Positions 3,265 to 21,723 of a DNA stretch of 64,000 nucleotides are shown here, piece after piece. The notes below the pieces were generated by a model, which was not told where the DNA came from, did not search any database, and worked only from the letters and a program-made list of their open reading frames with translations. Positions within the stretch are counted from its first letter, which is position 1. Each line of letters starts with the position of its first letter. Made by a program: the position numbers and the translations under genes. This DNA comes from an uncultured archaeon (GTDB lineage: Archaea; Asgardarchaeota; Lokiarchaeia; Sigyniarchaeales; SOKP01): the NCBI GenBank assembly GCA_964508365.1, contig CAZDTP010000012.1:9573-73572 (forward strand), given 5' to 3'.

Positions 3265-3329
3265 ATTTACTATTTTTTAATTAGGTTACCTAACTTGACA
3301 TTTGGAATAATCGCATAGTTAGCCTTCTC

Positions 3330-4445: not shown

Positions 4446-4720
4446 GAGTCTTTTTAACTCTAATTTTTATTTTCGTAAATTTCATTCTTTTGTATAAAGC
4501 AAACAGGAGATTCAATCCTAGGTCAGCAATACGTATTATTCCTAAAATGATAAAACCTACTGAATTTTTTGGCCTAAATTTGATCACACACTTCAAGTTG
4601 GATTATTTATTATAGATTAGATTATAGTAATTTATAAAGATGTCGACCAAACCTGGCTACACTATTGAATAAAGAGGAGATTCGTTCTCAACAATCTTCA
4701 CATCATTTTACAACCGTTTT

Positions 4721-4752
4721 TAGAAAATTCTATATTTAGAAAATTCTATATT
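4721..4752. repeat. Perfect 16-bp tandem duplication, each unit holding a TAGAA-AA-TTCTA palindrome
   Basis: tagaaaattctatatt x2 in the divergent intergenic region between the ARH gene and 4819..5088. Confidence 0.85.
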
Positions 4753-4818
4753 TATAATAATCCTAAATTAATTTATGAAAATCTTTTATTAAAGCTAAAT
4801 TAAAATTCGGATTGCCTT

Positions 4819-5088
4819 ATGACTGACTCCTCAAAAGCCAATTTGGTTAATAAAATTCAGGTCGAATACCATAAAAAGTTAAAAGAACTAGAACAAAAAC
4901 TCGCAGCAAAGCATAAAGAATTAAACCTAATCGAACAAGGAATAAAACATGAATCAAAAAAAATTTATGACTCAAACCTTTCTTCATTAAAGGCTAAAAG
5001 AACGGAGTTGAATGCTTCCATTTTAAAGTTAAAGAAGGATATAAGACATATCAATAAAGAAAAAATTAAAAAGTTGAGAAAGCTATAA
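4819..5088 (+). CDS. Small coiled-coil hypothetical protein
   Basis: 89 aa, Lys/Glu/Leu heptad character. Confidence 0.6.
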   Translation: MTDSSKANLVNKIQVEYHKKLKELEQKLAAKHKELNLIEQGIKHESKKIYDSNLSSLKAKRTELNASILKLKKDIRHINKEKIKKLRKL

Positions 5089-5260
5089 ATTATCTTTATA
5101 ATGATGTCGTCTAATCTTAACAGAAGATTGTATCATTGAACTTTTAAATCTTTTTGATTTCAAACTCCAACAACTCTACCTATACAAGAGCCATAAACTT
5201 TTTTATAATATTCCTTAAATGTTATTTCTTTCATGATTTTTTTGATTATTTATTTGAAAA

Positions 5261-6118
5261 TTAACGTAAGGGAAATTTTGGGTCTCGTTTCTCGATGTAA
5301 GCATTAAATGCTTCCCACACATCTGCAGAACTACCTCCTAAAACTTGCCCGCGGTTTTCTAATTGGATCATTGTTTCTAAACTCGGAGAATCAAGGGATA
5401 GATTAATCGCTTGTTTTGTCATCCGTAAGCCCAAAGGGCTTTTTGTGAGCATTTCTCTCGCCATTTCCATCGCTGAATCAAACAATTTCTCTTCCTCGAC
5501 AATCTTCAAAACAAAACCTATTTTGGTAGCTTCTTCAGCGCCGAAAAACCTTCCTGTATATAATAATTCGGATGCTCTCGACAATCCTATGAGACGCGGT
5601 AGAAAATAACTACTCCCCATATCCGCCCCTGTTAACCCGATATTTATATAACCCGCGTTGAATTTCGCATTCTTTCCAACTATCCGAATATCAGCAGCCA
5701 TTGCGATAGAAAAACCCGCTCCCATTGCAGCACCTTGGATTACAGCAATAATCGGTTGCGAAATCTTTCGCATCTTAATGATAAGATCAGAAATTCTCCA
5801 TTGGTAATACATAAAGCTTTTAACCACTTCGGGAATATCTAAGAAATAAAATTTCTTGAGATGATCCGGCTTCTTTTTTGATTTCAATACGCTGGCATCG
5901 CTCAAATCTTGACCGGCATTAAAGACCTTTCCTTCTGCTTTCATAATCAGGACCCGACAATCAAGATTTGTCATTAATGCATCTAATAATGAATGAAGGT
6001 CCTCAACCATCTGAAAAGATATAGCATTAGCTTTTTCTGGTCTGTTGAATGTTAAAATTCCAATACCGTTTTCTTCCAATTCGAACTTTATCGTTTCAAA
6101 TTCCATACTCTTACACAT
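5261..6118 (-). CDS. Enoyl-CoA hydratase/isomerase (crotonase) family protein
   Basis: LTFNRPEKANAIS, FNAGQDL, QPIIAVIQGAAMGAG, GADMGSSYFLPRLIG; probable start ATG 6106. Confidence 0.93.
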   Translation of the reverse strand: MCKSMEFETIKFELEENGIGILTFNRPEKANAISFQMVEDLHSLLDALMTNLDCRVLIMKAEGKVFNAGQDLSDASVLKSKKKPDHLKKFYFLDIPEVVKSFMYYQWRISDLIIKMRKISQPIIAVIQGAAMGAGFSIAMAADIRIVGKNAKFNAGYINIGLTGADMGSSYFLPRLIGLSRASELLYTGRFFGAEEATKIGFVLKIVEEEKLFDSAMEMAREMLTKSPLGLRMTKQAINLSLDSPSLETMIQLENRGQVLGGSSADVWEAFNAYIEKRDPKFPLR

Positions 6119-6210
6119 AAAAGATCAAATAAAAAGATGTTATGATAACGAAATGGTCATTTCAATAAAAAGTTTAAATCATATTATAATATTTCTTCAA
6201 AAGTTTCAAA

Positions 6211-6366
6211 TTATTTTGAGTTATTTTCTTTATTAAAAGACCAGAAATATACAACAACAATACAAAATATTAGTAATATTGGAATTGAAATCATAATTGA
6301 AATATAATTCTCTCCCTCCGAACTAAGAAGTAATACACCTGGAATGGAAATCAACAACGAAATCAT
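6211..6366 (-). CDS. Small two-TM protein or 3' remnant of a membrane-protein gene (51 aa)
   Basis: Hand-translated MISLLISIPGVLLLSSEGENYISIMISIPILLIFCIVVVYFWSFNKENNSK; below ORF-track cutoff. Confidence 0.45.
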   Translation of the reverse strand: MISLLISIPGVLLLSSEGENYISIMISIPILLIFCIVVVYFWSFNKENNSK

Positions 6367-6373
6367 TTCAGAA

Positions 6374-6459
6374 TAATTAAAAAAAAGGATTTCATAAGAA
6401 GCTGGTATGGTCTAAAGCTTAAGAATTATAGAATAAATCAGAAATATAATAAAAAAAAA
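6374..6459. repeat. 86-bp intergenic direct repeat, copy 1 (includes minus-strand T-tract)
   Basis: Ungapped match to 9461-9546 with 12 mismatches by hand count. Confidence 0.85.
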
Positions 6460-6477
6460 GATTTAATTAATTAAACC

Positions 6478-9345
6478 TTATTCTGGTGTCGCTCGTTTTT
6501 TCATAAATATGTAGAGACCAGCTATGACTGCAACTCCTCCGACTACAGAAACAACAATAATAACGATAAGAATAGTTAGATCATCCCCAGCAGGGGGGAT
6601 GCTTTTCGTTATCGTTAATTCTTCAAAAGATAGATTTCCTATAGTATCATTCGCATAGAAAGTAATAGTTATTGAGCCTTCAGATAAAGCCGACCATGCT
6701 GTTTGGTCAATGGTAGCATTCGTAGTAATAGCATGAGTGGTCACACCTCCATCAAGAGAATACCATATCGAGTCTAAATGGTCATCTGTAATCGTAATAA
6801 TGAAAGCAGGAGCACTAACACCAAATTCACTCCCGGAAGAAGGTGAATTGACAACGATAACTGGCCCTATAGCATCTTTTACGATAATTACATCCTCAGA
6901 TGTTTCATGTCCTAACATATCATTCGCATAGAAAGTAATAGTTATTAAGCCTTCAGATAAAGCCGACCATGCTGTTTGGTCAATGGTAGCATTCGTAGTA
7001 ATAGCATGAGTGGTCACACCTCCATCAAGAGAATACCATATCGAGTCTAAATGGTCATCTGTAATCGTAATAATGAAAGCAGGAGCACTAACACCAAATT
7101 CACTCCCGGAAGAAGGTGAATTGATTATGATAATTGGACCTGTAATATCTTTTACGATATTTACATCAGCAAATCCAATATATCCTGGTATATCAGAAGC
7201 ATAGAAGATTAATGTAATCGTACCATCAGATAAGGCATCCCACGCAGATTGATCAATCGTTCCGTTATCTGTAAAGGTGTAATTATTTAATCCCCCATCA
7301 ATAGTATACCACATTTCATCTATATAATCGTCTGTAATTCTCACATTAAAAGAGGGGGCAGTAGTACCAAATACACCACCGGGATCAGGTGAATTAATCG
7401 CTATCGATGGGGCACCGTCTTCTGCTATGGGTAAATAATCTATACTTCCAGCAGAACCACCTATATATATGTATGGATCATCTACAATTCCATCTTGTGG
7501 GGTTGTATCTGGACTAGTCCAATTATCCCAGTAATTACCAATTGCGGTGCTATTCCAATTGTTATCGGTTCCATCATCAATAGCATGTTTTTCATTTTTC
7601 AGAAAGAAATTTCCATAGATGGAGTTATTATTACTAGAGTCTAAATATATCCCGCTTTGGGTATTGTTACATGCGGTGTTTCCTGTAATGTTATTGTAAT
7701 GAGAAGTTTGTAAAGATATCCCATCACCGTTATAGTTTGCGGTGTTTTTAGAAACCGCGTTGTAATCACTATTAAATAAATATATCCCTATATCCCCAGC
7801 ATGGTCATTTGCAGTGTTTCCTATAATATTATTATAATCGCAAAACCATAAAACAATCCCATGACCATTATCGTTTGCGGTGTTTCCCGAGATACTATTA
7901 TCATCGCAATTATCATTTAACCATATTCCATAATCGCCATTACCATTTGCGGTGTTTCCCGAGATCGTATTATTATTGCAACTATTTTCTAAATATATCC
8001 CATAATAGGTATTATTGCTTGCGGTGTTTCCCGTAATATTATTATAATCACAATCGTATAAATGTATCCCGTGCAGATTATTGTCATTTGCAGTGTTTTT
8101 TGTTATAGTATTGTATTCACAATCTTCTAAATATATTCCAAATTCGGTATTATTGTATGCAGTATTTTCAGAGATAGTGTTATTTTTGGCATGTTCATGT
8201 ATATACATTCCATAAGCGGTGTTATTATTTAATGTATTTCCTGTAACTGTGTTATTATTACTTCCCTCTAAGCGTATTCCGTAATAATTATTATCGTTTG
8301 CTGTATTTCCGATGATACTATTGAAATCATCGTAGAATACTTCTATACCAACATTATTTCTATTTACAATATTTTTCACGACAATGTTATTATCACAATC
8401 ACTTTCTAAGAAAATCCCATCAATATTACCACTTCCAGTATTTTCCGTAATATTATTGTAATCACTGAAAGTTAAATATATTCCCGCAATATTATTGTCG
8501 TTCGCAATATTTCCTGAAATTGTGTTGTAATGTCCATTATTAATTTCAATTCCATCATTGTTATTATCATTCAAATTGTTTTCCGTTATAGTATTATTAT
8601 CACTAAACCACAATAAAATACCATTATCGTTGTTATTATTTGCTTTATTTCTATAAATTTCGTTGAATTTGCTATTACTTACTTTTATCCCGTTTGTATT
8701 GCTATATACGGTGTTGTTGTAGATAATATTATTATCACTAATTGATAAACTGACTCCAATTACAGAACTATATGCAGTATTATCTATTACTTCACTATAA
8801 TTACTCTGAATTAAATATATAGCGTTCATAGTATTATAGACTGTGTTATTAGCAATAATTATATCTTCACATTCGTTTAAATAGACCCCAGTACCCATTC
8901 CATTAATAGCAATATTATTATCACTTACTAAACCATTTGTAGTATTATCTAAGGTTATCGCTTTTTCTGAGCCTATTGAGATGGATCCGTCCCAGAAGAA
9001 TGTGCAGTTTTTAATTATGAAAGATATATTATTTGAATTGCTTATCTTAATACCATCTGCCAAACTATCTATCCCTAATGTGTGATCTTGAATTATATAA
9101 GGATTTTCTAAAGTTCCTAATCCAGAACACCACACTTGATTTTCTGCCCATGTCCAATTATTCCAACTTCCAGGCAGATTGTCAATTGTGATATTTTCAT
9201 ACGTTCCAGAAGTTCTTATCTTAGGTTGCACATAAATGTTAGAATTAGTATTACTTAAATATCCAGAATTTTGTATAAAGAAAAATCCTACAATGAACAT
9301 CAATGCAATAATACTAGTAATAAACTTTCGTTGATTCGGTTTCAT
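6478..9345 (-). CDS. Cell-surface protein: signal peptide, NosD/right-handed beta-helix repeats, three Ig-like repeats, C-terminal TM anchor
   Basis: Repeated N.I.GN.A.NN..GI.L units; IxINSP...APxFxxxITD...WYxxDGG Ig-like units; hydrophobic C-terminus plus KKR. Confidence 0.88.
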   Translation of the reverse strand: MKPNQRKFITSIIALMFIVGFFFIQNSGYLSNTNSNIYVQPKIRTSGTYENITIDNLPGSWNNWTWAENQVWCSGLGTLENPYIIQDHTLGIDSLADGIKISNSNNISFIIKNCTFFWDGSISIGSEKAITLDNTTNGLVSDNNIAINGMGTGVYLNECEDIIIANNTVYNTMNAIYLIQSNYSEVIDNTAYSSVIGVSLSISDNNIIYNNTVYSNTNGIKVSNSKFNEIYRNKANNNNDNGILLWFSDNNTITENNLNDNNNDGIEINNGHYNTISGNIANDNNIAGIYLTFSDYNNITENTGSGNIDGIFLESDCDNNIVVKNIVNRNNVGIEVFYDDFNSIIGNTANDNNYYGIRLEGSNNNTVTGNTLNNNTAYGMYIHEHAKNNTISENTAYNNTEFGIYLEDCEYNTITKNTANDNNLHGIHLYDCDYNNITGNTASNNTYYGIYLENSCNNNTISGNTANGNGDYGIWLNDNCDDNSISGNTANDNGHGIVLWFCDYNNIIGNTANDHAGDIGIYLFNSDYNAVSKNTANYNGDGISLQTSHYNNITGNTACNNTQSGIYLDSSNNNSIYGNFFLKNEKHAIDDGTDNNWNSTAIGNYWDNWTSPDTTPQDGIVDDPYIYIGGSAGSIDYLPIAEDGAPSIAINSPDPGGVFGTTAPSFNVRITDDYIDEMWYTIDGGLNNYTFTDNGTIDQSAWDALSDGTITLIFYASDIPGYIGFADVNIVKDITGPIIIINSPSSGSEFGVSAPAFIITITDDHLDSIWYSLDGGVTTHAITTNATIDQTAWSALSEGLITITFYANDMLGHETSEDVIIVKDAIGPVIVVNSPSSGSEFGVSAPAFIITITDDHLDSIWYSLDGGVTTHAITTNATIDQTAWSALSEGSITITFYANDTIGNLSFEELTITKSIPPAGDDLTILIVIIVVSVVGGVAVIAGLYIFMKKRATPE
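6645..7124. repeat. Near-identical intragenic duplication, period 273 bp (91 aa)
   Basis: 6645-6851 vs 6918-7124 differ at one base in 207. Confidence 0.9.
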
Positions 9346-9460
9346 TCTTAAGACCTTTTTATAAAAAGTATGTGGATTGATATTATTTCTTCTAATTTAA
9401 ATATTATTAAAGACCTTTAAATTTAGGTTTCACTAGGAACCTTACTTCTTTTAGTCTAAA

Positions 9461-9546
9461 TGATTAAAAAAAGAGATTTAATTAGAAACTGATATGTTCT
9501 AAAGCCTTAGAATTATAGAAAAAATCATAAATATAATAAAAAAAAA
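9461..9546. repeat. 86-bp intergenic direct repeat, copy 2
   Basis: Matches 6374-6459; lies just 3' of the acyltransferase gene. Confidence 0.85.
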
Positions 9547-9572
9547 ATTTTGTTTTAAAATTTATAATACCC

Positions 9573-11030
9573 TTAGTTTTTATTAGATAGTGTACAATAC
9601 AACGCAAAAACGAAGTAAGCTCCCATAGGAATCAATAGAATCCAAAATTCGCTTGGCAAGAAAATTTCGACTTGAAGAATCATCGAGATAAAGCTTATAA
9701 TTAGAAAGCCCGTCCATATACTTAATATACGTGTATTTAGTGGTCTTTTAATGACAAAATGGTATATTATCGCAGCGATTGCATAAAGTATAATCACCAT
9801 AAGCGGTATTGGAATCCAGAGTCCTTGTAACCAGAAGGTTAAAAACAACCCGCAAGGAAATAGAATGAAAAAATTGAGGTAATATAATATCCTTCTTGTT
9901 AAATCTTCTTGATGATCAATTTTATACCAGATTATTCCTAACCAAATAAATAGAATCCATGCAGTTACTAAATCGATTAGATCAAAAGGATCGAATGGAA
10001 CATCCATTCCATAGTGAGTCCCCCAGTAAGCCGTGATCATCGCATATCCCAATATCTGGGTGAGCAAAATGTGATATGTCGATTTTCCGATTAAAGAAAT
10101 TGTTCTCGAGATTTTTGCATTAGATGTATTGCGTAAATAGTTAAGTGCAAGCAAGACTAGGAATGCGGAGTACGGAAAGACCAAAAAATGATAGTCTCCT
10201 CTTAGGAGAGGTGTGCCATTAAGCCTGAATCGAAAGTCAAAAAATTGATAAGCAATTAGGTATACCAAGCTAATTGGAAATAATATCCACATGAAGCAAT
10301 TTCTTTTTTCAGTAAGCTTATGACCAAAAGAAAACCACATTCCCAAACCTACTGCAGAAAGATAAAATAAGACGCTATTCATGAACAAGCTTAAGTAATG
10401 TGCTTCTTCCCAAGTTGTTATATCACCTATAATGAAAAAAACAGTAATTTGCAGTACAATTTCCACGACAAAGGTTAAAATTAACGTTATTACTGGTTTT
10501 TTAGTAAAACCCCAATATAGTAATGGTACGACGAGAATTGATTGCAATAAAACGGGGATGAACCAATTACCCGGTCCCCAAAAAGGCAGTATCAAATAAA
10601 ACAGGTTAATAATTCCGTGTTCTGGGGAATATTGAGTATCATACATTGCTATAAAATCGAATCCATACATAAATAAACCAATAAATGTTGATGCGGCATA
10701 CAGAATAAGAAAAGGGACAATATAGCGTAAGATTTTCTTCTTAAAATAACTCCAAGAATATAATTGTTTTAATGATAAATCACCTTGTCCTCTAAAAGAA
10801 TGCCCCATATTAAATCCAAGTATTACTAAAAAAACGGGTATGGAAATTCTTTCCCAGAGAGCGACCCCAATATCACTTTTGATGTTCCAAGAAACCATGT
10901 GATCAAAAATGACCAGAAATATCATTACCGCTTTTAGAAAATCAATCTGAAAGAAAGGGGTTCGTTCTTCAAATCCTCTTGAAGAGGATAGTTCTTCTTG
11001 CTCAGCACTCTGAAATTTGAGATCATTCAT
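9573..11030 (-). CDS. Acyltransferase 3 family (OafA-like) membrane protein
   Basis: QIDFLKAVMIFLVIFDH, IPVFLVILGF, ILRYIVPF, WFIPVL, GKSTYHILLTQ; many TM helices. Confidence 0.85.
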   Translation of the reverse strand: MNDLKFQSAEQEELSSSRGFEERTPFFQIDFLKAVMIFLVIFDHMVSWNIKSDIGVALWERISIPVFLVILGFNMGHSFRGQGDLSLKQLYSWSYFKKKILRYIVPFLILYAASTFIGLFMYGFDFIAMYDTQYSPEHGIINLFYLILPFWGPGNWFIPVLLQSILVVPLLYWGFTKKPVITLILTFVVEIVLQITVFFIIGDITTWEEAHYLSLFMNSVLFYLSAVGLGMWFSFGHKLTEKRNCFMWILFPISLVYLIAYQFFDFRFRLNGTPLLRGDYHFLVFPYSAFLVLLALNYLRNTSNAKISRTISLIGKSTYHILLTQILGYAMITAYWGTHYGMDVPFDPFDLIDLVTAWILFIWLGIIWYKIDHQEDLTRRILYYLNFFILFPCGLFLTFWLQGLWIPIPLMVIILYAIAAIIYHFVIKRPLNTRILSIWTGFLIISFISMILQVEIFLPSEFWILLIPMGAYFVFALYCTLSNKN

Positions 11031-11181
11031 CCTTTACATCATTAATTTTTCATTAGAAATTTTGTTAGAAATTTTATAATAACTTTTAACTACACCTAAT
11101 TATTAACACTAAAGGAGTCCGATTTTTAGAATTTAAGAATATTTTAAAAAAAAAAAGATTGGATAAAAAATTAAATTGTTC

Positions 11182-11514
11182 TTAATAGATTCCAGCCGAA
11201 CTTGAAGGAATCAAAAGAATGTCGTCGCCATTATGAAGATGATAATCACTTAATTGGTCAGCCTCGTCCATCGTAACACCACCAGAACTGAGGTGAAATT
11301 CGTCGGGATCAAGCCCGAATAGATTTCCAAGGGTTCTTTTTACATCACTCACCCGATTAGAGTCATTCACGGTCAACTTTTCCTTCTTTTCTCCCGGTCC
11401 TATAGTTGACATGAAGTAAAGGGTCGACTTTTTACCTGTAGACGGTGTCTTGGAAGCAGGAGTTTTTGATTTAACGGGTTCATATTCATCATCTAAATCT
11501 TCTTCAAAACTCAT
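11182..11514 (-). CDS. Ubiquitin-like (beta-grasp) protein with acidic N-terminal extension
   Basis: KLTVNDSNRVSDVKRTLGNLFGLDPDEFHL...QLSDYHLHNGDDILLIP pattern; ends SSSAG-IY. Confidence 0.75.
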   Translation of the reverse strand: MSFEEDLDDEYEPVKSKTPASKTPSTGKKSTLYFMSTIGPGEKKEKLTVNDSNRVSDVKRTLGNLFGLDPDEFHLSSGGVTMDEADQLSDYHLHNGDDILLIPSSSAGIY

Positions 11515-11683: not shown

Positions 11684-13102
11684 TTAGAGCCCTAATTCTT
11701 TCAACCGATTTTTATTGGTTAAGGCTTGTTCTTTAGTTATCTTGTAAGTAAAGTAAATAATTAATGTGGCAAAAATATTTATCACCAAAGGAATTAAAGA
11801 CATTTGAAGATTGAGCCCTTGTTTCACGACAGGATCAGTAGCAGGAATAATACTGGCATCAAAACCAGTAATCGCTCCTACAATGGTAAATAATGCTACT
11901 TGGAAGAAATATGTAAAAGCAGTAAAAACGCGTAATATTCCTAAGAAAGATCCTTCTTCACGCTTATTTGTATTGACAACAGTATTGTCAATCGCTTCTG
12001 CTCTTGCGAGAGTTGCAATAACGCCAAAATTTGCAGCCGTAGGAATCCCAGCAATTGAAGTTACGAGGAATAACCCCTCAAAACTGGTAACAAAGAAAAA
12101 CATTACATAAATGAATGTGTGTAAGGTTAAACTTATCAGATATGTTTTTCTGATGCCAATTTTCTTTGCAAACGTAGTCCATATCGGAGCAAATATAACG
12201 GTTAACACACCATATCCTAAACTTGGTAATGCACCATATTCAATTGGCAAATTCAAATAATATATGATAAAATAATTCATGCCATAAAGCATGCAAGCTC
12301 CTGCAGTCCCCCATAATAGAAATGAGAATATTAAACCGACCCATACTTTATCTTTAAACATTTTTTTTAGAACTTCCTTAAATGGAGAAGAGGTTCTTCC
12401 TGTTCGGTCTAATTCTGCTCTGAATTCTTTCCTTGCTTTACTTTCACGTATGCTTCTTATGTATGGAATAAATATCAAATATGCTATAATGACGAAGATA
12501 ATAGTTCTTATTAAGTATGCCGGTTGGTTTAAAGCACCTCCAAAAATCGCTAGTAATATCGGGGAAATGACTGAAAAACTAATTGTTACTAAACCCCCAA
12601 TCACAGCTCCATAAGCACTAGCTTTTCTTCGAGAAGAGTCTTCTCGGAATAAATCAGGATATAGTGAAACGTGATTTACTTCGAGGAGTGTTAGGAAACT
12701 TTCGTAAATTACCATCATAATTATTAACCATATAGCATTCGTTACTACGGCTGATATATCTGCAACTTGAACAAAGGATAAGATTAAGAATATTGGTCCT
12801 ATCAGTCCTCCAACTAGTATCCATAAAAAACGCTTACCAAATCTGGCAGTAAATTTTTTTGATCTATCAGCAAAATATCCAATAATTGGGTCATTAAAAG
12901 CATCTACGAGAGAATAAACCAAAAAAATGAGAGTTACGATAATTTGAGGAATAAATAGCACAGAAGTCGCATAAAACTGCAGATTTCCCCACATCATGAA
13001 TAATAGAGTCGTTACAGGTGCTTGCAGCGAAAAACCAATGACTTTTTTAATTGATATTTCTCCAAATCGTGTATCTGGTAAATCATCTGACATATAGTTC
13101 AC
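11684..13102 (-). CDS. MFS transporter, GPH (Na+/melibiose symporter-like) family
   Basis: VDAFNDPIIGYFADRS..FG.RF motif, 12 TM, C-terminal ITKE. Confidence 0.88.
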   Translation of the reverse strand: MNYMSDDLPDTRFGEISIKKVIGFSLQAPVTTLLFMMWGNLQFYATSVLFIPQIIVTLIFLVYSLVDAFNDPIIGYFADRSKKFTARFGKRFLWILVGGLIGPIFLILSFVQVADISAVVTNAIWLIIMMVIYESFLTLLEVNHVSLYPDLFREDSSRRKASAYGAVIGGLVTISFSVISPILLAIFGGALNQPAYLIRTIIFVIIAYLIFIPYIRSIRESKARKEFRAELDRTGRTSSPFKEVLKKMFKDKVWVGLIFSFLLWGTAGACMLYGMNYFIIYYLNLPIEYGALPSLGYGVLTVIFAPIWTTFAKKIGIRKTYLISLTLHTFIYVMFFFVTSFEGLFLVTSIAGIPTAANFGVIATLARAEAIDNTVVNTNKREEGSFLGILRVFTAFTYFFQVALFTIVGAITGFDASIIPATDPVVKQGLNLQMSLIPLVINIFATLIIYFTYKITKEQALTNKNRLKELGL

Positions 13103-13214
13103 TTTTTAAATATTTAAAATATTTTTTAGTTAAAAATTAGATAAACTAATATATAAAGTTTAAATTTCCAGAAAGTTTTAAATGAAAGAATTCTATTGGA
13201 ATTAACTTTTGGTT

Positions 13215-13367
13215 TTAATCAGGGATATGTATTGAATGATCTTCTTTGATATAATATAGAAAGATCTTAGTCTTAGCCTCCTCAACTCCAGGCATATTAC
13301 GGCGTTTTTCAATAAGATTCATAGAATCATGATGATTTAGATATTTTGCCATAGAGAATATTGGATA
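13215..13367 (-). pseudogene. Decayed remnant of the lrp/asnC 3' end (older copy)
   Basis: Reads YPIFSMAKYLNHHDSMNLIEKRRNMPGVEEAKTKIFLYYIKEDHSIHIPD*; 33/50 aa and about 67% nt identical to the end of 18501..18986; no 5' part. Confidence 0.85.
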
Positions 13368-13513
13368 TTATAAAGATACGATAATTTTAAAAAAAATATA
13401 TCGAGTGTTAAACATTTGGTTTTATTGATTAAAATGATTCACCTATATTACTAATTTCAACAAAAAGACTCCTTCTTTAAGAAATTTTCTTAGCCATATA
13501 AGGTAATTTTACC

Positions 13514-14446
13514 TTACAATGGAAAATAAAGTTTAGATAATGGATGATCCTCAGAATCGAATTTGTTTTTAAAGTTCATTTTTGAGTTTCTACGTATCAT
13601 TGCGTCCACTATCGCAGTTGAAGGAAATATATACTCTGCTTTTTCTAAAGTGCCATAAATAATGAAATCAGTACCCATAGCTAATGCTAAAGAAACCCCA
13701 GCCGCTTCACAAGCTCCTTTAAAATTTCCCTTGAAAATCTCATTTTTAATACACCATCTCCCTATTACTCCCACTGGAGCTGTTCCCGTAGGTAACCCAA
13801 ATTCTTCCTTTAATCTATAAATATTTCTTGAAGCGACCCCTATAGTGGGAATTTCAAACACACTAGTGAAGAGTAGCAATTTTTTTAAGCCAGCTCTTTG
13901 AGCTTTTTCGATTAAACCCTCCTCTTTATCCTTTCCTTTAAGTATATCGATTAAACCTGCAATTCGGGGATTTCTTGGATTAAATGATTGAATTATCGCG
14001 GATTCAACATTACATTCTAAGATGCCATTAAGTTCTTCTTCTGTAAGTGTGTAATTAATTGAGGTGTAGATCGCTCTATTATTTAAACCAATTTCCCTAA
14101 TAAATTTCATTAGGTTTATTCTTATTTCCGAAGAAACAGCATTCAATAAAAATGGGTCCGTTGATATTTCTGCAACAAATTGGACATATTTCTGGAGAGC
14201 GAGTTCACTTGTTCCGGCTATATCGAGCATACATGGATTTCCAGATTGATCGGAGAGTTCCTTTTGCATATATATTAACTCTTCAGTTTTTTTCTTATCA
14301 AATAAACCTTTCTTCTCATCTTTTACCTTTTTATCTCCTTGATGAAATATACTCCCAATCAATACGGTGGGATTTTCTCCAACTGTTCCTCCAAGTTTAA
14401 TTCCGTCTATATCTAACACTTGCTGTTCTTTTCTAAAATTTATCAT
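13514..14446 (-). CDS. mtrH: MtrH-family methyltransferase (methylcorrinoid:pterin methyltransferase)
   Basis: FRKEQQVLDIDGIKLGG..GENPTVLIGSIFH.G, NRAIYTSIN, KEEFGLPTG.AP, GTDFIIYG. Confidence 0.85.
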   Translation of the reverse strand: MINFRKEQQVLDIDGIKLGGTVGENPTVLIGSIFHQGDKKVKDEKKGLFDKKKTEELIYMQKELSDQSGNPCMLDIAGTSELALQKYVQFVAEISTDPFLLNAVSSEIRINLMKFIREIGLNNRAIYTSINYTLTEEELNGILECNVESAIIQSFNPRNPRIAGLIDILKGKDKEEGLIEKAQRAGLKKLLLFTSVFEIPTIGVASRNIYRLKEEFGLPTGTAPVGVIGRWCIKNEIFKGNFKGACEAAGVSLALAMGTDFIIYGTLEKAEYIFPSTAIVDAMIRRNSKMNFKNKFDSEDHPLSKLYFPL

Positions 14447-14545
14447 TTTACTGACCTAATACGAAATTGTAATTTCAAATATAAAAATATCATAATATTA
14501 ATTAATTTTATTCAATCCTTTGAATATCTATTGATATGATCGGAA

Positions 14546-14836
14546 TTAAGTTTTAAAGTCTATAATTCTCGAGCCGTGAAATAATCTTACTATTTGAATT
14601 TTTTTTCCTAAAATTCTATAAATGATACGATAATTTCTTAAGATTAATTTTCGAATATTAGGTTCATCGAGCTCGGGCATTATTTTTCCCATTTTCGGAA
14701 ACTAAATTAAATTTTCAACTTTCTCACGTACTTGTTCATAAAACGAAAGAGCATATTCAAGTGAGTCTTGAACAATATTATCAATAATCTCAATCAAATC
14801 ATTTTCTGCTTTTAATGACCATTCTATTTCAGCCAT
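14546..14836 (-). pseudogene. ParE/RelE-family toxin with in-frame TAG at codon 45
   Basis: MAEIEWSLKAENDLIEIIDNIVQDSLEYALSFYEQVREKVENLI*FPKMGKIMPELDEPNIRKLILRNYRIIYRILGKKIQIVRLFHGSR...; start overlaps antitoxin stop; not in ORF track. Confidence 0.88.
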
Positions 14837-15024
14837 TGTTCCAATCTCTTTTTAGCATTTTCCATGACTTGTTCGTGAGGAAGTACTCTACTTTGCTCAA
14901 TATCTTCAATACCGGAGATGATCTTTTTTTTTACATAAAGATGATACATAATATCATCAATTTTAGCATTTTCTGGCAATTTTTTTATCAATTCTATAAT
15001 CTCTTCCTTAAGATTAGAAGTCAT
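14824..15024 (-). CDS. Putative antitoxin partner of the ParE-like toxin
   Basis: 66 aa, IELIKKLPENAKIDDIMYHLYV..KI..GIEDIEQ.RV.PHE; 13-nt overlap with toxin start. Confidence 0.75.
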   Translation of the reverse strand: MTSNLKEEIIELIKKLPENAKIDDIMYHLYVKKKIISGIEDIEQSRVLPHEQVMENAKKRLEQWLK

Positions 15025-15125
15025 AGTTTCTCACTATCTAAATAACTATTTTCCCTTTTATAATTTCTCTAAAGCTGAATAGGTTCATTAAATTGAACTC
15101 AAACTCTACAAATTACCAAACTATA

Positions 15126-15296
15126 TTAGGATTTTTGCTCTGGAATTATAATCGTGTGATCTTCTTTTATGCTATCCAAGACCAATTGAGTTTTTACCTC
15201 CTCTACTTCTGGAAGATTACGAAGGTTCTCGATAAGATTCATTCAATCATTGTGATCTAAACATTTAGCCATTATAAATATGGGATAATCTCCCGT
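15126..15296 (-). pseudogene. Remnant of the lrp/asnC 3' end (younger copy)
   Basis: 57 codons colinear with 18501-18671; 25 nt differences: 23 synonymous, one TCA>TGA nonsense, one R>S. Confidence 0.92.
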
Positions 15297-15450
15297 GAGT
15301 AAAAAAGATAGTTAAAGTTGTTAATGTTAACAGTACTATAGATTTTTATCCCCCTGATTTAGGAATGAAGATATAAAAGTCATCATAAAATGAAAAAAAA
15401 AATAAAGAAGTTATTATGGACTGAGTTGTTGCTCCATGAAGAATCAAAGT

Positions 15451-18189
15451 TTATTCCGTCCTTTTTTTTAAAAAGAACATTATTACTGCGATAATGATCA
15501 GGGAAACCACGCTAACCAAACTGATTATCAAGCCGAGCATAAAGACAGGATCTAAAGCACCATCTTGCGGTATTTTTCCGGGATAATCGTTCGGATTCAG
15601 GGGATCGGTTCCTGATGCCAGCTCAATACCATCATAGTGCCCATCATCGTCCGAATCGTCATCGAGTGGATCCGTGCCGTACTTGATTTCAAACGCATCA
15701 TTCAGGTTATCTAAATCGGTATCAATCATCGTTGGGTCGGTTCCATGGCTGAGTTCATCGAGATCATCAAGCCCGTCATAATCGCAATCTCCAATGGTTA
15801 TACCTAATAAATCAATGACCGCTTGGATGGCATCAATATCACCTGTAAGGGTGTCATTAATTTGACTTAAATAAACCTCATTTTGCTGGGCCAACGCAAG
15901 AACGGTCTGAATGAGAGTGGCATTTCCTTCCACGTAGGAAATGATATCCATTAACTGGGTGGCATTTCCTTTGATATAGGTGAAGAGGAGATTGATTTCG
16001 CTATTAGCCTCTCCAAGCCACCCGATCACTTGCTGTAGTAGCGTGGCATTCTGCTTTAACTGAAAAATGATGTTATCAAGTAGAGTGGTATTTCCTTCTG
16101 TCCATTCAATCAAGTTTTGGATTAAAGTCCAGTTCCCAGCCAAGTCTGTTACCACATCCATGAGGATCGTCGCATTTCCTTCAAGGTATGTGAAGAGTAG
16201 GTCAATCTCGTCATTGGCATCTCCAAGCCAACCGATCACTTGTTGAAGTAAAGTGGCATTTTGCTCTAACTGATATATAATGGTATCGATGAGACTTGCA
16301 TTTCCATTGGTCCAATCTATTACTTTTTGGAGAAGCGTCCAGTTGCCTTCTAGATATAGCATGAGAGCATCAAAATCGTTCTTCCAAATCTTCGGAAAAT
16401 CATCGGAATTTGTCGCACTGCTGCCATACTCAAGTTCATAGCCATCTAAGAAATTATCACCATCAGTATCTACTGAAAAAGGATTAGTGCCCAATAATAA
16501 TTCAATGCTATCCAGTAATCCATCCCCGTCCCAATCAAAGTCTTCGGGAGAAATAAAAAAGTTTTCAAAAATGTAGTTATCAGTTGTATTACCTTCAAAT
16601 TCTTTATCATTATCCCATATCCAATTTCTATAGAGAATATTATGTTCTGAATCTTGAAAATCCACAGCAATTTGATTATTGGCTAAAATATTTCTAGTTA
16701 TGGTACTATAATTGCTGTATTCCAAGAAAATACCTTTATCCCCATTCGAACTGCAATTATTCTCCAAAACCGTGTTATATTCTGAAGTATATAAGTAAAT
16801 GCCATGCTCTCCATTCGAAGTGCAGTCATTATTCGAGAACATGTTATAATTACTCGACGAATAGAAACAAATCCCGTAACATCCAATTGAGGAGCAATTA
16901 TTCCTTGAGATCGTATTATTGTTAGATGAGTATGCGGAAATCCCGTGATCTTTTGAAGAACAGTTGTTCCCCGAAATCTTATTGTTGTCCGAGAGAATTA
17001 ATCTAATCCCGACATTATTATTCGAAGTACAGTCATTTTTCGAAACCGTATTATAATTACTCGAGGAATACATATGAATCCCACAAATTTCGTTTGAAGT
17101 ACAATCGTTTCCCGAAACCGTGTTATTGTTCGAAGAATCTAAGTAAATTCCTTCATCATTCGAAGTGCATATGTTCTCTGAGATCGTGTTATTACTCGAG
17201 GAATGAACATAAATTCCCTGATAATTCGAGGAGCAGTTATTCTCCGAGATCATGTTATTATTACTCGACAGGGGGTAAATTCCCCTGTAATTCGAAGAGC
17301 AGTTATTTCTCGAGACTTCGTTATCGCTCGCGCTTTGAAAGAGAATACCATTTTCACTATTTGATGAGCAAGTGTTCATTGAGATCTCGTTATTGGTCGA
17401 CCCATCTACTGCAATCCCAGTATGTCCATTCAAGGAGAATATGTTCCTTGAGATCGTGTTATTGCTGGATCCAGATACCACGATTCCCCAATTCAAATTC
17501 AAGGAGCAGTTGTTCCCCAATATGTATATTTTATTCGAGGTATATACATAAATTGCATGACTATCATTCGAAGTGCATTTGTTCTCTGAGATCGTGTTAT
17601 TGCTCGAAGATTGTAATAAAATCCCAACACTATTTGAAGTGCATGTGTTCTCTGAGATCGTATTATCATAGCTTGAATTCCTCAGATAAATTCCTAAGTA
17701 ATTCGATGAGCAGTTATTTCCCGAGATCACTATATTAGTCGAAGCTTGCAAGTAAATCCCATCTTGATTATCATGAATGGTATTATTATAGATTATAGCA
17801 TTTCTACTATTTTGTAGATGAATTCCCGCATCATAAATATCCGTTCCAGAGTTGAAAAGCGTGCAGTTTTTAATTACAAAATATACCGTTGTTCCAGAAA
17901 TATATAAACACGATCCCATCCCTTCCGCGTCAATCGTCCAGTTGGCGATGATATACGGATCATTCTCCGATCCATCTCCCCCTACAACACCGTTTTCAGT
18001 GGTAAATCCAGAATTGCTCGAGATTAGTATGGGAGCGTGGGTAAGACCACTGATTTTCAGATTGCGATTAAAAGGCAAGGAGTAAGTATCTATAGTTTCT
18101 CTTGTAATATCATTCCCAAAGTCCCAGATGAAGGTAAGTAAACCGAAAAAGATTAATCCACCGAGTAAAATGATTTTCATTTTTTTCAT
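15451..18189 (-). CDS. Cell-surface adhesin-like protein: beta-helix head, TSP3-like Ca-binding repeats, 14-residue-repeat stalk, C-terminal TM anchor
   Basis: NNTISENxCxSN units; DTDGD..LDGYE...GTDP...D repeats; GNATLL 14-mers; TM plus KKR. Confidence 0.88.
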   Translation of the reverse strand: MKKMKIILLGGLIFFGLLTFIWDFGNDITRETIDTYSLPFNRNLKISGLTHAPILISSNSGFTTENGVVGGDGSENDPYIIANWTIDAEGMGSCLYISGTTVYFVIKNCTLFNSGTDIYDAGIHLQNSRNAIIYNNTIHDNQDGIYLQASTNIVISGNNCSSNYLGIYLRNSSYDNTISENTCTSNSVGILLQSSSNNTISENKCTSNDSHAIYVYTSNKIYILGNNCSLNLNWGIVVSGSSNNTISRNIFSLNGHTGIAVDGSTNNEISMNTCSSNSENGILFQSASDNEVSRNNCSSNYRGIYPLSSNNNMISENNCSSNYQGIYVHSSSNNTISENICTSNDEGIYLDSSNNNTVSGNDCTSNEICGIHMYSSSNYNTVSKNDCTSNNNVGIRLILSDNNKISGNNCSSKDHGISAYSSNNNTISRNNCSSIGCYGICFYSSSNYNMFSNNDCTSNGEHGIYLYTSEYNTVLENNCSSNGDKGIFLEYSNYSTITRNILANNQIAVDFQDSEHNILYRNWIWDNDKEFEGNTTDNYIFENFFISPEDFDWDGDGLLDSIELLLGTNPFSVDTDGDNFLDGYELEYGSSATNSDDFPKIWKNDFDALMLYLEGNWTLLQKVIDWTNGNASLIDTIIYQLEQNATLLQQVIGWLGDANDEIDLLFTYLEGNATILMDVVTDLAGNWTLIQNLIEWTEGNTTLLDNIIFQLKQNATLLQQVIGWLGEANSEINLLFTYIKGNATQLMDIISYVEGNATLIQTVLALAQQNEVYLSQINDTLTGDIDAIQAVIDLLGITIGDCDYDGLDDLDELSHGTDPTMIDTDLDNLNDAFEIKYGTDPLDDDSDDDGHYDGIELASGTDPLNPNDYPGKIPQDGALDPVFMLGLIISLVSVVSLIIIAVIMFFLKKRTE

Positions 18190-18500
18190 TTTTTCATCTC
18201 ATTTTTCCATTGTTGTTTAATTTTCTAATTCTTGAGAAGAATTATTCTTACATACTATTTAACTTCTTGAGGAAATCAAAATTCATTACGGGTAATGTAA
18301 ATGTTAAAAAAAGACAGATCAGAAATGTTTTTGCATATTTCTTCCTTAAGAGATTAATTAGTTTAATTTTTAGCACCAGTTAATTGTTTGATTTTTGTCA
18401 AAAAATCTAAATGAAATTAAGAAAGTATTGTATATAAATAGTAACTAATCTTACTTTGACAATCAAGACTGCAAATTATCTATTAAAATTTAGATGTGAT

Positions 18501-18986
18501 TTATGATTTTTGCTCAGGAATGATTATAGTGTGGTCTTCTTTAATTCTATCCAAGACAAGTTGAGTCTTTACTTCTTCTACTTCTGGAAGATTGCGAAGA
18601 TTTTCTATAAGATTCATTGAATCATTATGGTCTAAGCATTTAGCCATAATAAAGATAGGATAGTCTCCCGTAATAATATAAGCGTATTTAATTTGATTCA
18701 TTCGTTCGATTTCTTCTTTAATTTGCTCAAGAGGTCGCCTTGAATTAACTCTGAGCGATGCCATCACCATTTCACGATATCCTAATTTTCGACAATCAAT
18801 GATAGCCATGTATTTTTTAATTAGAGTTTCTTCTAATTTTTGAATTCTAGTTCGAATAGCTGTTTGACTCATATCTGTCTTTTCAGCTACTTCCCGAATG
18901 GTCATTTTACCATCTTCTTGTAATAATTCTAAAATTCGTTTATCAACATTATCTATGTTACCATTTGTCAAGCTTACTGATACCAT
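18501..18986 (-). CDS. Lrp/AsnC family transcriptional regulator, divergent from the tusA-dsr-hdr operon
   Basis: DNVDKRILELLQEDGKMTIREVAEKTDMSQTAIRTRIQKLE HTH; ITGDYP in the C-terminal RAM domain. Confidence 0.92.
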   Translation of the reverse strand: MVSVSLTNGNIDNVDKRILELLQEDGKMTIREVAEKTDMSQTAIRTRIQKLEETLIKKYMAIIDCRKLGYREMVMASLRVNSRRPLEQIKEEIERMNQIKYAYIITGDYPIFIMAKCLDHNDSMNLIENLRNLPEVEEVKTQLVLDRIKEDHTIIIPEQKS

Positions 18987-19235
18987 TTAATTTTCACTTT
19001 AAATCTGTTCTTAATCTTGTTCTCTAATACTTAAATTAGTTTAACTTTTATAAAAATTTTTTCACTAATAATTCTAATTCTGTTAGTTTTTTTAATAACT
19101 TAAATACGATTCTTTTAAATTAAAAAACTATGATTTAAATAACAAGTTATATTTTTATTTAGTAAAGAATACCAGAATAGTTTTTTTATGGTATTAAAAC
19201 AAGAAAAACAAAAAAAAAAACTAAAGTGAAAAAAA

Positions 19236-19460
19236 ATGGCTGATAAAACATTAAATGCAATCGGTTTAAAATGTCCCATGCCAGTTTTAAAAACGAAGAA
19301 GGAACTGAAAGGAATGACTTCAGGGCAGGTCTTAGAGCTTATTGTCGATGATAAAGGAGCTTTAAAAGACATTCCAGCCTTATTAGGGAAAACTGGGGAT
19401 GAATTACTCGAAACTAATGAATCTGATGATCAAGTAGTTTTCTTGATTAAAAAAGCATGA
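19236..19460 (+). CDS. tusA: TusA/SirA family sulfur carrier
   Basis: LNAIGLKCPMPVLKTKKEL (CPxP), GQVLELIVDD. Confidence 0.92.
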   Translation: MADKTLNAIGLKCPMPVLKTKKELKGMTSGQVLELIVDDKGALKDIPALLGKTGDELLETNESDDQVVFLIKKA

Positions 19461-19488
19461 ACTTGATAATTTATTTGAGGGACGAGCG

Positions 19489-19857
19489 ATGACGACATAT
19501 ACATTCTTTATTAGTACAGAACCTTATAAATTTGAGGTTACAGATTCGCTAATTGAACTTTGTAAGGCTATCATAAAAAAGGGAAACTCCATCAAGGGAT
19601 TATTCTTTTTTGGATCGGGTGTCTACAACTTAAAGGGAGACATTAGTGCTGGAGCAACGATACGCAATTTACCTAAAAAGTTACAAGATTTTGCTCTTGA
19701 GAACAATATTCCTGTATCGGGTTGTAGTACATGGGTAAGTTTAACTGGTCTAAAGGAAGAGGAATTTATTGAAGGTGCTACTGAAGAAGGGTTAGGTGAC
19801 TTTTCAAATTGGTCAGTAGAATCTGATAAAATAATAGTTTTTGGAACGGGGGGATAA
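19489..19857 (+). CDS. dsrE: DsrE/TusD family sulfurtransferase subunit
   Basis: ISTEPY, LFFFGSGVYN, Cys in VSGCSTW at the usual active-site position; first of an E-F-H triplet. Confidence 0.75.
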   Translation: MTTYTFFISTEPYKFEVTDSLIELCKAIIKKGNSIKGLFFFGSGVYNLKGDISAGATIRNLPKKLQDFALENNIPVSGCSTWVSLTGLKEEEFIEGATEEGLGDFSNWSVESDKIIVFGTGG

Positions 19858-19859
19858 TA

Positions 19860-20228
19860 ATGGTGGAATCAGTAGTAATTATAACAGACCAATCACCCGT
19901 AGGTAAGAATTCTGCAGCAGAAGCAATTAGGATTGGATCTGGTTTTGTGGCGTTAGGAGAATATATCAATTGTCAAGTGGTATTTATGGGTGATGCGTTA
20001 TACTTGTTGAATAAAAATGCAGTTCCTAATGCTATTGACATGGATTCTAATGATGAGGTACTTGAAATCGCAGATTTATCAGATTTAGAGTTGTACATAA
20101 TAGATACAGACTTGAAGAATGCTGGCATGACAGAAGATGATCTAATTGAATATGAGAGTTTAAAGATAATATCTATTGAGGAATTATCTGATTTAATAGA
20201 TCAAGCAGATACATGCTTTAGATTCTAA
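19860..20228 (+). CDS. dsrF: DsrF/TusC family protein
   Basis: QSPVG..SAAEAIRIG, VVFMGDALYLL. Confidence 0.75.
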   Translation: MVESVVIITDQSPVGKNSAAEAIRIGSGFVALGEYINCQVVFMGDALYLLNKNAVPNAIDMDSNDEVLEIADLSDLELYIIDTDLKNAGMTEDDLIEYESLKIISIEELSDLIDQADTCFRF

Positions 20229-20241
20229 TGGAGGGAAAAAG

Positions 20242-20571
20242 ATGGAAATAGTATACTTATTCGGATTTAGTGAAAGGACAGGGAACCATTTAGAAAGGCT
20301 ATTGCCCTTATTAAAAGTGCAAATTCAGAAAGGAGCAAATGTCGGTTTAGTCTTTATACACGATGGAGTGATTGGATTAAACACCAATGGATCAATTCCA
20401 AGCAAATTGGAAGAATTATTAAACTCTAATATTACATTAAAAGCCATGGTTCCAGATATGAAAGCACGAGGAATACCCATTGAGAGCTTGCATGATAAAA
20501 TAAAACCAATTGAATATGATGAGTTAGTAGAAATATTAGATAATACTCAAAAAATAATTTCATGGATGTAA
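20242..20571 (+). CDS. dsrH: DsrH/TusB family protein
   Basis: LVFIHDGVIG, PDMKARGI, IEYDELVEIL...KIISW. Confidence 0.8.
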   Translation: MEIVYLFGFSERTGNHLERLLPLLKVQIQKGANVGLVFIHDGVIGLNTNGSIPSKLEELLNSNITLKAMVPDMKARGIPIESLHDKIKPIEYDELVEILDNTQKIISWM

Positions 20572-20695
20572 AATAATCAAAAATTAAAAATTTTTTAATA
20601 ATTAATAAATCAAAAATAACGGTCATAGATTTGACGTCAATAATTAAGAACAACAAAAAAATTAAAAATAAAATAAAAAATAGAAGTGAAAAAAT

Positions 20696-21112
20696 ATGGG
20701 AGAAACAATAAACTATATAGTAAAGGACAAATCATTCGAAAAGTTCGCAATGATGATGCTCCTAGGTACCACAGCAGACGCTATGGAAACAAAATCCAAC
20801 TTTTTCTTCACCTTTTGGGGTTTGAACTTATTAACCAAAAAGTTTAAACCTAAAGTTGCTGGAATGCCTACACCTATGAAGGGTATGGGTGCAAAGATTT
20901 TTAGAAAAAGGATGGCAAAGTTTGGAATTGAAGATCCATGGGGTATGATTAAAGACGCTGTCGAAAATGGTAATATGAAATTATTTCCATGCCAAATGAC
21001 AATGGATTTAATGGGAATTAAGCGAGAAGATATGCTTGATTTTGTTGAAGATCCTGTAGGTGCCGCAACATTCTTAGAAATGTGTGAAGGCGGAAAAATG
21101 GTCTCACTATAA
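20696..21112 (+). CDS. DsrE2-like (DrsE_2) sulfur-relay protein
   Basis: FFFTFWGLNLL, FPCQMTMDLMGI, VGAATFL. Confidence 0.85.
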   Translation: MGETINYIVKDKSFEKFAMMMLLGTTADAMETKSNFFFTFWGLNLLTKKFKPKVAGMPTPMKGMGAKIFRKRMAKFGIEDPWGMIKDAVENGNMKLFPCQMTMDLMGIKREDMLDFVEDPVGAATFLEMCEGGKMVSL

Positions 21113-21165
21113 ATAAATTTTTAAAAATTTTTTTTTTAATTCAAATTAATGAAATAGTGGAAAAA

Positions 21166-21723
21166 ATGTCAGAAACAAAAGAAGAACACCGAGAATTTAA
21201 GACAGATGAAGATTTCGATAAAGATTATTTTAAAAATATTGAAAGAAAGTCAAATATTTGGCAATGTATTCAGTGTGGAACGTGCACGGCCAGCTGTGAG
21301 TCTGGACGTTGGACTGCACTTAAAACAAGATTAATCATTAGAAAAGTATGTTTAGGAGATCTTAGTGTTCTTAAAGACCCCGATATTTGGCTTTGTACAA
21401 CTTGTTATCAATGTTATGAACGCTGTCCTCGTGATGTAAGGCCAACTGATGTAATAATGGAATTAAGAAATTACGCTACTAAATTAGGAAATATTTCGCC
21501 ATCTCACCGAGCGGTTGTTGGCTATTTAAAGAATTTTGGACATGCCGTACCTATAAATGACGAGATTAGAAAACGAAGGGTCGAATTAGGATTAGAAGAA
21601 CTCCCTCCAACTGCGTTTAAATATAAACAAGAGGGAGATGATAAAGATTTAAAGAAATTTGAAGAACATTTGTTTGATCTTCCTCCAGTTAAGGAGGAAA
21701 AAAAGAAGGAAGAGGAGAAGTAA
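21166..21723 (+). CDS. hdrC: Heterodisulfide reductase subunit C
   Basis: CIQCGTCTASC and CTTCYQCYERCP ferredoxin motifs, GHAVP; ORF track starts at GTG 21157. Confidence 0.93.
   Translation: MSETKEEHREFKTDEDFDKDYFKNIERKSNIWQCIQCGTCTASCESGRWTALKTRLIIRKVCLGDLSVLKDPDIWLCTTCYQCYERCPRDVRPTDVIMELRNYATKLGNISPSHRAVVGYLKNFGHAVPINDEIRKRRVELGLEELPPTAFKYKQEGDDKDLKKFEEHLFDLPPVKEEKKKEEEK

Follow-up and report, generated by a model that had tools for sequence, protein, structure and literature searches.

Phage 21 and e14 integrate at the 3' end of the icd gene of Escherichia coli, and genomic islands accrete in tandem at the 3' ends of tRNA and tmRNA genes. In marine bacteria, "replacement" and "additive" flexible genomic islands are exchanged via homologous recombination in their conserved flanks, and the polymorphic-toxin genes rhs and cdiA are accompanied by orphan C-terminal/immunity cassettes downstream. 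Homology-facilitated illegitimate recombination and Campbell-type additive integration reportedly occur in naturally transformable bacteria (de Vries and Wackernagel 2002). Here we analyze the 3' end of an lrp gene, encoding a regulator of the Lrp/AsnC type, that is present in three tandem copies in a 64,000-nucleotide (nt) stretch of DNA (hereafter the window, G000:C12:9573-73572; coordinates given without a contig are positions in the window). The source genome, G000, is a metagenome-assembled genome (MAG) of 149 contigs and 4.07 Mb, and the comparison set consists of 42 species representatives, likewise MAGs, of one Promethearchaeota genus (Lokiarchaeia-type Asgard archaea). We find it probable that the tail of lrp borders a flexible island and provides it with a homology arm, exchange being homology-driven and joins occasionally additive. 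For the Asgard archaea themselves, two accounts describe mobile elements that encode tyrosine integrases and target tRNA genes or an 11-bp motif (PMC8813620, PMC11529989).

A repeat search of the window returned one direct family of three copies (13206-13400, 15126-15320, and 18501-18695), and BLAST with lrp matched nowhere else in the entire G000 genome, bearing out an earlier note on this stretch, in which the last ~55 codons of lrp had been seen three times in the same orientation and the BLAST comparison had been proposed; the figures of that note (85% nt identity for the nearer remnant, 67% nt and 33 of 50 amino acids (aa) for the farther one, 23 of 25 differences synonymous) were all reproduced. 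The near remnant, whose similarity to lrp begins at ITGDYP (aa 105), differs from the intact tail at 25 of 171 nt, 23 of these differences being synonymous, one converting S122 into TGA, and one being R146S. The proportions of synonymous and nonsynonymous differences (pS and pN) are thus 0.69 and 0.015 (pN/pS 0.02), and with pS nearly saturated and pN this low, the truncation is recent relative to the allelic split, supporting the proposal of the earlier note that this copy diverged as a functional allele. In a tree, the near remnant falls with the G000, G056, G001, and G023 group on a long, mostly synonymous branch, and the intact tail falls near G056; when the intact G000 lrp was tested for mosaicism against G056, its closest relative, no clear identity dip was found in the 3' third. 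The far remnant, in which similarity begins at YP (aa 109), is more diverged and has a pN/pS of 0.19, its local alignment score being 55 against 12.3 ± 1.8 for shuffled sequence (some 24 standard deviations above), and it contains a 45-codon open reading frame with an ATG (13215-13352). Decay grows with distance from the intact gene in this window, as had been noted, but not in every array elsewhere (L145, below).

As to the surroundings, lrp, transcribed divergently from the tusA-dsrE-hdr genes, adjoins tusA, three dsrE-like genes, a 138-aa gene, and hdrC in nearly every relative possessing lrp, G041 and G008 being without the dsrE genes. Past the lrp stop codon, the sequence differs in each relative examined. 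Compared to G056, G000 is colinear at 87% identity from 20837 to 18506 and unrelated beyond the stop codon. One relative, G051, presents an empty site, with lrp followed by 233 bp and then by a gene for a ubiquitin-like protein (UBL), which is 7 kb away from lrp in the window, 1.3 kb in G024, and ~15 kb in G014. Empty and variably filled sites had both been anticipated, but the predicted form of the empty site, with lrp followed directly by the gene of a major facilitator superfamily (MFS) transporter, was wrong: no MFS orthologue is present at the lrp locus in any relative examined, and thus the MFS gene belongs to the variable DNA, not to the flank. An MFS_2 gene is found among the cargo of one metagenomic array.

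Comparisons of codon-aligned lrp orthologues, split at ~aa 97 into N-terminal (N) and C-terminal (C) parts, indicate that, between lineages, the final third of lrp and the DNA downstream of it move together. In the pair G017-G050 the N parts are 72% and the C parts 99.4% identical at the nt level, and in G041-G050 the respective values are 71 and 94%; the opposite is seen in G005-G041 (96 and 79%) and in G021-G017 (97 and 87%). Between G050 and G017, identity rises from 62-86% to 98-100% at ~185 nt before the lrp stop, the cargo block after lrp being 96% identical and the hdr side 87%. Trees built separately from the N and C parts disagree with strong support, and in mismatch tracks the breakpoint varies from pair to pair (near aa 97, 109, or 150), a multiplicity of exchange points that is the pattern of homologous recombination tracts. 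Two suggestions of the earlier note hold up here: the 3' end of lrp moves with incoming DNA, as the C part is matched by downstream identity, and this end is a repeatedly used insertion point, as attested by the mosaic lrp, by the functional-allele signature of the remnant, and by the empty and variably filled sites.

The arrays are not confined to G000. Approximately 15 downstream remnants in the same orientation are present in about 10 of the 42 species, the carriers besides G000 being G001, G010 (two remnants), G014 (two), G017, G043, G049 (four, on three contigs), G050, and G052, and WORC5 has two lrp remnants. A degenerate-pattern scan of metagenomes produced 112 matches; among the 80 loci listed of these, 16 have two or more Lrp pieces (five in the largest array), the pieces being always on the same strand and the full-length copy, when present, upstream. 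The longest array is that of L145 (Ga0307379_10003223, 2892-11240), in which an intact lrp is followed by four remnants (aa 127-158, 111-143, 138-158, and 108-130) over 8 kb, with cargo that includes a 1367-aa protein. The remnants all extend to the 3' end of the gene but begin at many different places (aa 40, 89, 93, 98, 100, and 105, several at 108-112, many at 116-129, then 134-138 and 145), so that the close agreement between the starts of the two window remnants reflects no general fixed crossover. The conserved crossover near TGDYP envisaged in the earlier note is therefore not upheld, given this spread of boundaries and the mosaic breakpoints named above. Stops and frameshifts are found in the remnants, the G043 remnant, for example, being frameshifted. 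Some inserts measure only 0.2-0.6 kb or zero (G001, G014, G010). In G010, a full lrp belonging to a foreign haplotype runs to its stop codon, after which the older copy, of a different haplotype group, resumes at ~aa 44 within ~3 nt, plainly a non-homologous join. The loci of G017, G049, and G050, which have one remnant in common at 96-100% identity, have undergone several superimposed insertions and deletions, and no unambiguous single-step junction was found in them; G049 may be a mixed bin.

Nor is the scar special to lrp: at least 10 other G000 genes bear it. When the genome was compared with itself by BLAST to find local repeats on one strand, 11 loci were identified, lrp included, at which an intact gene has its 3' end repeated 0.2-7.6 kb further downstream with cargo in between, compared to only two loci with repeats of a 5' end. 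The targets are ordinary housekeeping genes (methyltransferase, PAC2, RNase H, thioredoxin-like, OB-fold, KaiC-like ATPase, enoyl-CoA hydratase, and others), and the cargo includes an ABC transporter, a leucine-rich repeat protein, and, on C51, a 974-aa NosD protein, as at lrp. The pN/pS between tail and remnant is 0.02-0.47 over the 11 loci and 0.10-0.47 over the ten non-lrp loci, from which most of the remnants appear to be displaced functional alleles.

We propose that the lrp stop codon marks the edge of a flexible genomic island common to the genus, the contents of which, mainly toxin-antitoxin (TA) modules and surface proteins of the NosD/beta-helix type, would be swapped between related lineages by homologous recombination, with the last third of lrp serving as one homology arm. 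This use would explain why the last third is mosaic and moves with the DNA that follows it. Most of the exchanges would be clean replacements. Occasionally, incoming DNA would be added rather than swapped, through one homologous junction and one non-homologous join, possibly by a single crossover of the Campbell type, involving a fragment that carries an lrp end and has become circular, or by homology-facilitated illegitimate recombination. This would leave a tandem pair of allelic tails, of which the first would complete the gene and the second, downstream, would be an orphan, and repeats of the additive step would have built the three-copy array of the window. Such arrays may persist because loop-out between the repeats would delete a TA addiction module. 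What characterizes flexible islands is found here: the flanks are conserved and the content differs, down to the empty state of G051; the breakpoints and the incongruent trees fall inside a flanking core gene; and the cargo consists of surface-protein and TA genes without mobility genes.

A number of points weigh against this proposal. Neither a donor state nor a circular intermediate came to light for any of the events, so that we infer the additive step, and with it the route of recombination and the order of events, from the products. Recombination between tails that are ~85% identical would be inefficient in bacteria, the longest identical run between the tails here is ~17 nt, and a tolerance of such divergence in these archaea would have to be assumed. 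About a quarter of the remnant boundaries are at aa 108-112, which could mean a preferred site or alignments that start at a conserved block. Which copy is native, and hence which tail would have been the incoming one, is ambiguous, as the tree places the near remnant as foreign, and its spacer and TA context place it as native to the species group. The gene order at the C4 methyltransferase (MTase) locus (JAB-MTase-next or MTase-next in relatives, MTase-JAB-remnant-next in G000) could be explained as well by duplication and deletion, and thus the genome-wide class may be mixed. Finally, a novel recombinase could escape searches based on Pfam.

Table 1. Positions of the features of the lrp locus in the window, and of other G000 loci with a displaced gene end.
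Feature	Position	Strand	Evidence or remark
Intact lrp, Lrp/AsnC regulator, 161 aa	18501..18986	-	Pfam HTH_AsnC-type 1.5e-14, AsnC_trans_reg 1e-10
Tail copy 1, aa 105-161 plus stop, within intact lrp	18501..18671	-	Repeat search, alignment
Spacer, lrp stop to adhesin start	18190..18500	-	Unique within G000
Leader common to other NosD genes	18269-18439	-	84-90% vs regions upstream of two G043 NosD genes
Cargo B: NosD/right-handed beta-helix/TSP3 surface protein, 912 aa	15451..18189	-	Pfam NosD 5e-67, Beta_helix 1.5e-60, TSP3_bac 1e-10
Near lrp remnant, aa 105-161	15126..15296	-	85.4% nt; TGA at 15243-15245
Spacer after near remnant, then left edge of TA cassette (~15074)	15025..15125	-	Aligns with G023 sequence after lrp stop
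Antitoxin gene of ParDE-like pair, 66 aa	14824..15024	-	No Pfam match
ParE toxin pseudogene	14546..14836	-	Pfam ParE_toxin on both halves
MtrH-family methyltransferase, 310 aa; with TA, cargo A	13514..14446	-	Pfam MtrH 1e-77
Far lrp remnant, aa 109-158	13215..13367	-	101/150 nt, 33/50 aa
MFS_2 transporter	11684..13102	-	Pfam MFS_2 5e-50
Far flank: UBL gene (11182-11514) and acyltransferase-3 (9573-11030)	9573..11514	-	Common to several relatives
Conserved flank: tusA, three dsrE-like genes, 138-aa gene, hdrC	19236..21723	+	Order retained at nearly every same-genus locus examined
Displaced-end loci, G000	C1:163220-163664; C4:79889-80907; C11:38734-43801; C30:1014-3095; C34:15960-18202
Displaced-end loci, G000 (rest)	C48:1-2324; C51:24239-27849; C51:5386-13204; C56:55-1339; C62:1-1015

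The cargo of the window is listed in Table 1. Seven other species have the ParDE-like cassette (~14544-15074) at 89-92% identity, higher than that of the core genes, and their lrp tails match the G000 tail at only 71-78%, so that the spread of the cassette is recent. In most of these species it is found in the same lrp-UBL-acyltransferase neighborhood; it abuts the lrp tail in G000, G043, and G049, via different spacers, and is placed between UBL and the acyltransferase in G002, in the order UBL-TA-acyltransferase. Homology of the TA to other genomes begins at query position 52-58. The antitoxin is encoded upstream of ParE at 86-92% aa identity in G002, G043, G049, and G008; ParE is intact (96 aa) in G043, G002, and G049, and it is interrupted in the window by one in-frame stop (14702-14704), the sole stop in a read-through translation. 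The mtrH homologues of G007 and G045 (82 and 77% nt) adjoin the acyltransferase and are not found with the TA, and cargo A is thus composite. The near remnant with its ~60-nt spacer and the TA align with the intact lrp stop, the spacer, and a 5'-deleted TA of G023, an alignment that suggests that lrp-spacer-TA is an older arrangement in this group of species, with later arrival of the adhesin. For the cargo B adhesin, no close DNA homologue, donor-like cassette, or junction was found in the 42 genus genomes, its leader alone being matched, by regions (G043:C18:2648-2782 and 6945-7077) upstream of two NosD genes of G043 whose coding sequences are unlike that of the adhesin at the DNA level; the leader may represent a shared promoter, leader, or recombination handle of the NosD family. 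Compared against the whole G000 genome, the four spacers of the window are unique and contain no repeated end sequence or att-like motif, and no tRNA, tmRNA, or Rfam RNA that could be an alternative target is present at the locus.

Some observations concern other parts of the locus. A 110-nt direct repeat (83%; 9459-9565 and 6372-6481) flanks a second NosD/beta-helix gene (955 aa), which makes a second bracketed adhesin cassette in the same island, just below the stop codon of the acyltransferase. A 73-nt direct repeat (85%; 4382-4454 and 5171-5243), which includes the 5' end of a 371-aa minus-strand gene, brackets F10 (4819-5088). This gene, found beside lrp and, in G014 and G052, between the lrp copies, was considered as a mobility gene and rejected, as its product is a coiled-coil protein of 89 aa that the genus conserves. 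It is probably an ancestral neighbor of lrp, usually convergent to it, and given this orientation in most relatives, it was apparently relocated in the window, leaving a 5'-end scar. On the conserved side of lrp, the lrp-tusA-dsrE block of G048 (G048:C161:565-3432, against 18513-21352) is 72% identical to that of G000, with flanks at 88-95%, and DsrE proteins across the genus fall into two identity classes (~77-81% and 60-65% aa). Divergent haplotypes of the sulfur-relay genes thus seem to be exchanged between lineages. G011 and G048 are both 96-97% identical to G000 at another locus, and G011 contains no stretch matching the lrp-hdr region of G000.

A further, less likely reading is that gene-end fragments are portable homology arms, so that cargo with a tail would circulate and be captured additively, by host recombination, at the matching gene. 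If so, this would be an integrase-free, integron-like stacking of cassettes at many genes, of which lrp would be the busiest. The IntI gene next to an attI platform that marks an integron proper is absent, as no tyrosine recombinase is encoded near lrp in the 42 genomes; the repeats are coding gene tails, and the spacers have no repeat in common.

We regard as unlikely a model along the lines of the earlier note, in which elements with a replacement lrp 3' end at attP would have been integrated serially, through a site-specific recombinase that works in trans or has been lost. The geometry is exactly that of tandem attL/attR accretion, each insert being flanked by direct repeats of the 3' end of the target gene and the gene being restored; the remnant did diverge as a functional allele; the two remnants of the window and those of G010 (contig c32), of G049 (c193), and of several metagenomic loci start at aa 105-112; and the join in G010 is right at the stop codon. 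However, no enzyme for it came to light in Pfam-based screens. The earlier note had seen no integrase in the window, and on its entire contig no tyrosine or serine recombinase and no TnpB or DDE_Tnp_1 transposase was found. Phage_integrase (PF00589) is absent from every lrp contig of the 42 genomes, and there is essentially one such gene, Xer-like, per genome. In G000, no serine recombinase of the resolvase type (PF00239) accompanies the single Xer-like gene, and the few TnpB and DDE transposases are on other contigs. Likewise, no mobility gene was recognized in the cargo between or below the copies (for metagenomic arrays, among 25 listed of 35 families), which is made up of NosD/beta-helix proteins, a TrmB-like regulator, PIN/MazE and other TA pairs, dehydrogenases, an MFS transporter, and similar genes, and no viral contig in IMG/VR carries the lrp tail (0 matches). 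Independent insertions do not coincide in crossover position, given the spread of boundaries and at least three mosaic breakpoints, the smallest inserts leave little or no room for an element, and eleven unrelated targets in one genome would need many specificities. With no recombinase in cis and one Xer-like enzyme available in trans, the integrative model gives way to the fallback offered in the same note, a homology-driven route, which fits better with the lack of a linked recombinase and with the several exchange points.

Quite unlikely, in our opinion, is local tandem duplication of lrp, with or without its neighbors, followed by 5' deletion in the downstream copy and later replacement of the tail in the intact one. 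Consistent with duplication are the full copy of G010 abutting a copy that starts at aa 40, the two full-length paralogues on one contig of G024, the position of most remnants nearest to the lrp of their own clade, the C4 locus, and the demonstrably frequent allelic replacement of tails. The pS and pN of the near remnant, however, are not those of neutral divergence from a recent copy in the same genome, no homology is left between the cargo units, and the two copies in G010 belong to different haplotype groups. Invariant gene order with full-length lrp paralogues at the remnant positions, an outcome that the earlier note had set against its model, was not found in the relatives: gene order is variable everywhere, and the nearest approach to such a paralogue is the partial G010 copy (aa 40-160). 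Duplication may contribute at other loci.

It is very improbable that the remnants have been retained for a function, as a peptide of one RAM half, encoded by the 45-codon frame of the far copy, or as a promoter or terminator. That frame has stayed open, with its ATG and a low pN/pS, and all remnants retain the extreme 3' end with the stop; the near copy, however, has an in-frame TGA, the G043 remnant a frameshift, and others stops, lengths and boundaries vary, and a low pN/pS is expected from an earlier life in a functional gene. An assembly artefact stringing strain variants together, which the origin of the genome as a fragmented MAG and the breaking of G009 and G019 contigs inside the lrp 3' end might bring to mind, has a negligible chance of being correct and is ruled out by the remnant common to three independent MAGs, by the recurrence of arrays in metagenomic contigs of many samples, and by pseudogene lesions, and copies differing by 15-33% cannot be collapsed repeats.

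In terms of significance, the lrp locus points to a recurrent route of gene gain, common in natural populations, that leaves a readable scar of allelic tails and has no linked recombinase. A parallel with the Asgard mobile elements is the same phylum-level host group, and gene flow via integrated DNA is shared with them (PMC8813620, PMC11529989); a term search of these accounts found no description of displaced protein-gene tails without an integrase. Gain and shuffling of genes in Asgard archaea bear on models of gene flow at the boundary of prokaryotes and eukaryotes. The scars offer a handle for recognizing insertion hotspots, for dating via pS and pN, and for tracing exchange partners in metagenomes. 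A regulator gene, moreover, can be a chimera, its C-terminal, ligand-binding half being swapped between species along with the adjoining accessory genes.

In conclusion, the locus compares with the described systems as follows. With insertions at icd and at tRNA ends it shares the duplicated tail flanking the insert, the upstream copy that keeps the gene whole, the mostly synonymous changes of the alternative tail, and the tandem remnants after successive insertions. Those systems possess an element-encoded integrase and a fixed core site, whereas the lrp arrays show no linked recombinase and variable boundaries, many of the inserts here are too small for elements, and lrp is only one of ~11 unrelated protein targets. 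The rhs and cdiA genes are similar in that incoming 3' modules recombine at a conserved region and push the old ends downstream as promoterless tandem orphans; lrp, in contrast, is a regulator, its tails all encode the same protein, and the cargo is unrelated to the gene. With homology-facilitated illegitimate recombination, the proposed route would share one homologous anchor, one non-homologous join, and independence of a dedicated recombinase. That process is, to our knowledge, an experimental one in bacteria, with no known role in recurrently marking a locus in archaea, and at lrp the route is deduced from its products. With flexible genomic islands the locus shares the conserved flanks, the species-specific content rich in surface and TA genes, and the breakpoints in a core gene. 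We know of no description of displaced allelic tail arrays as a hallmark of such islands; in these Asgard archaea, tail arrays are frequent and reach five copies.

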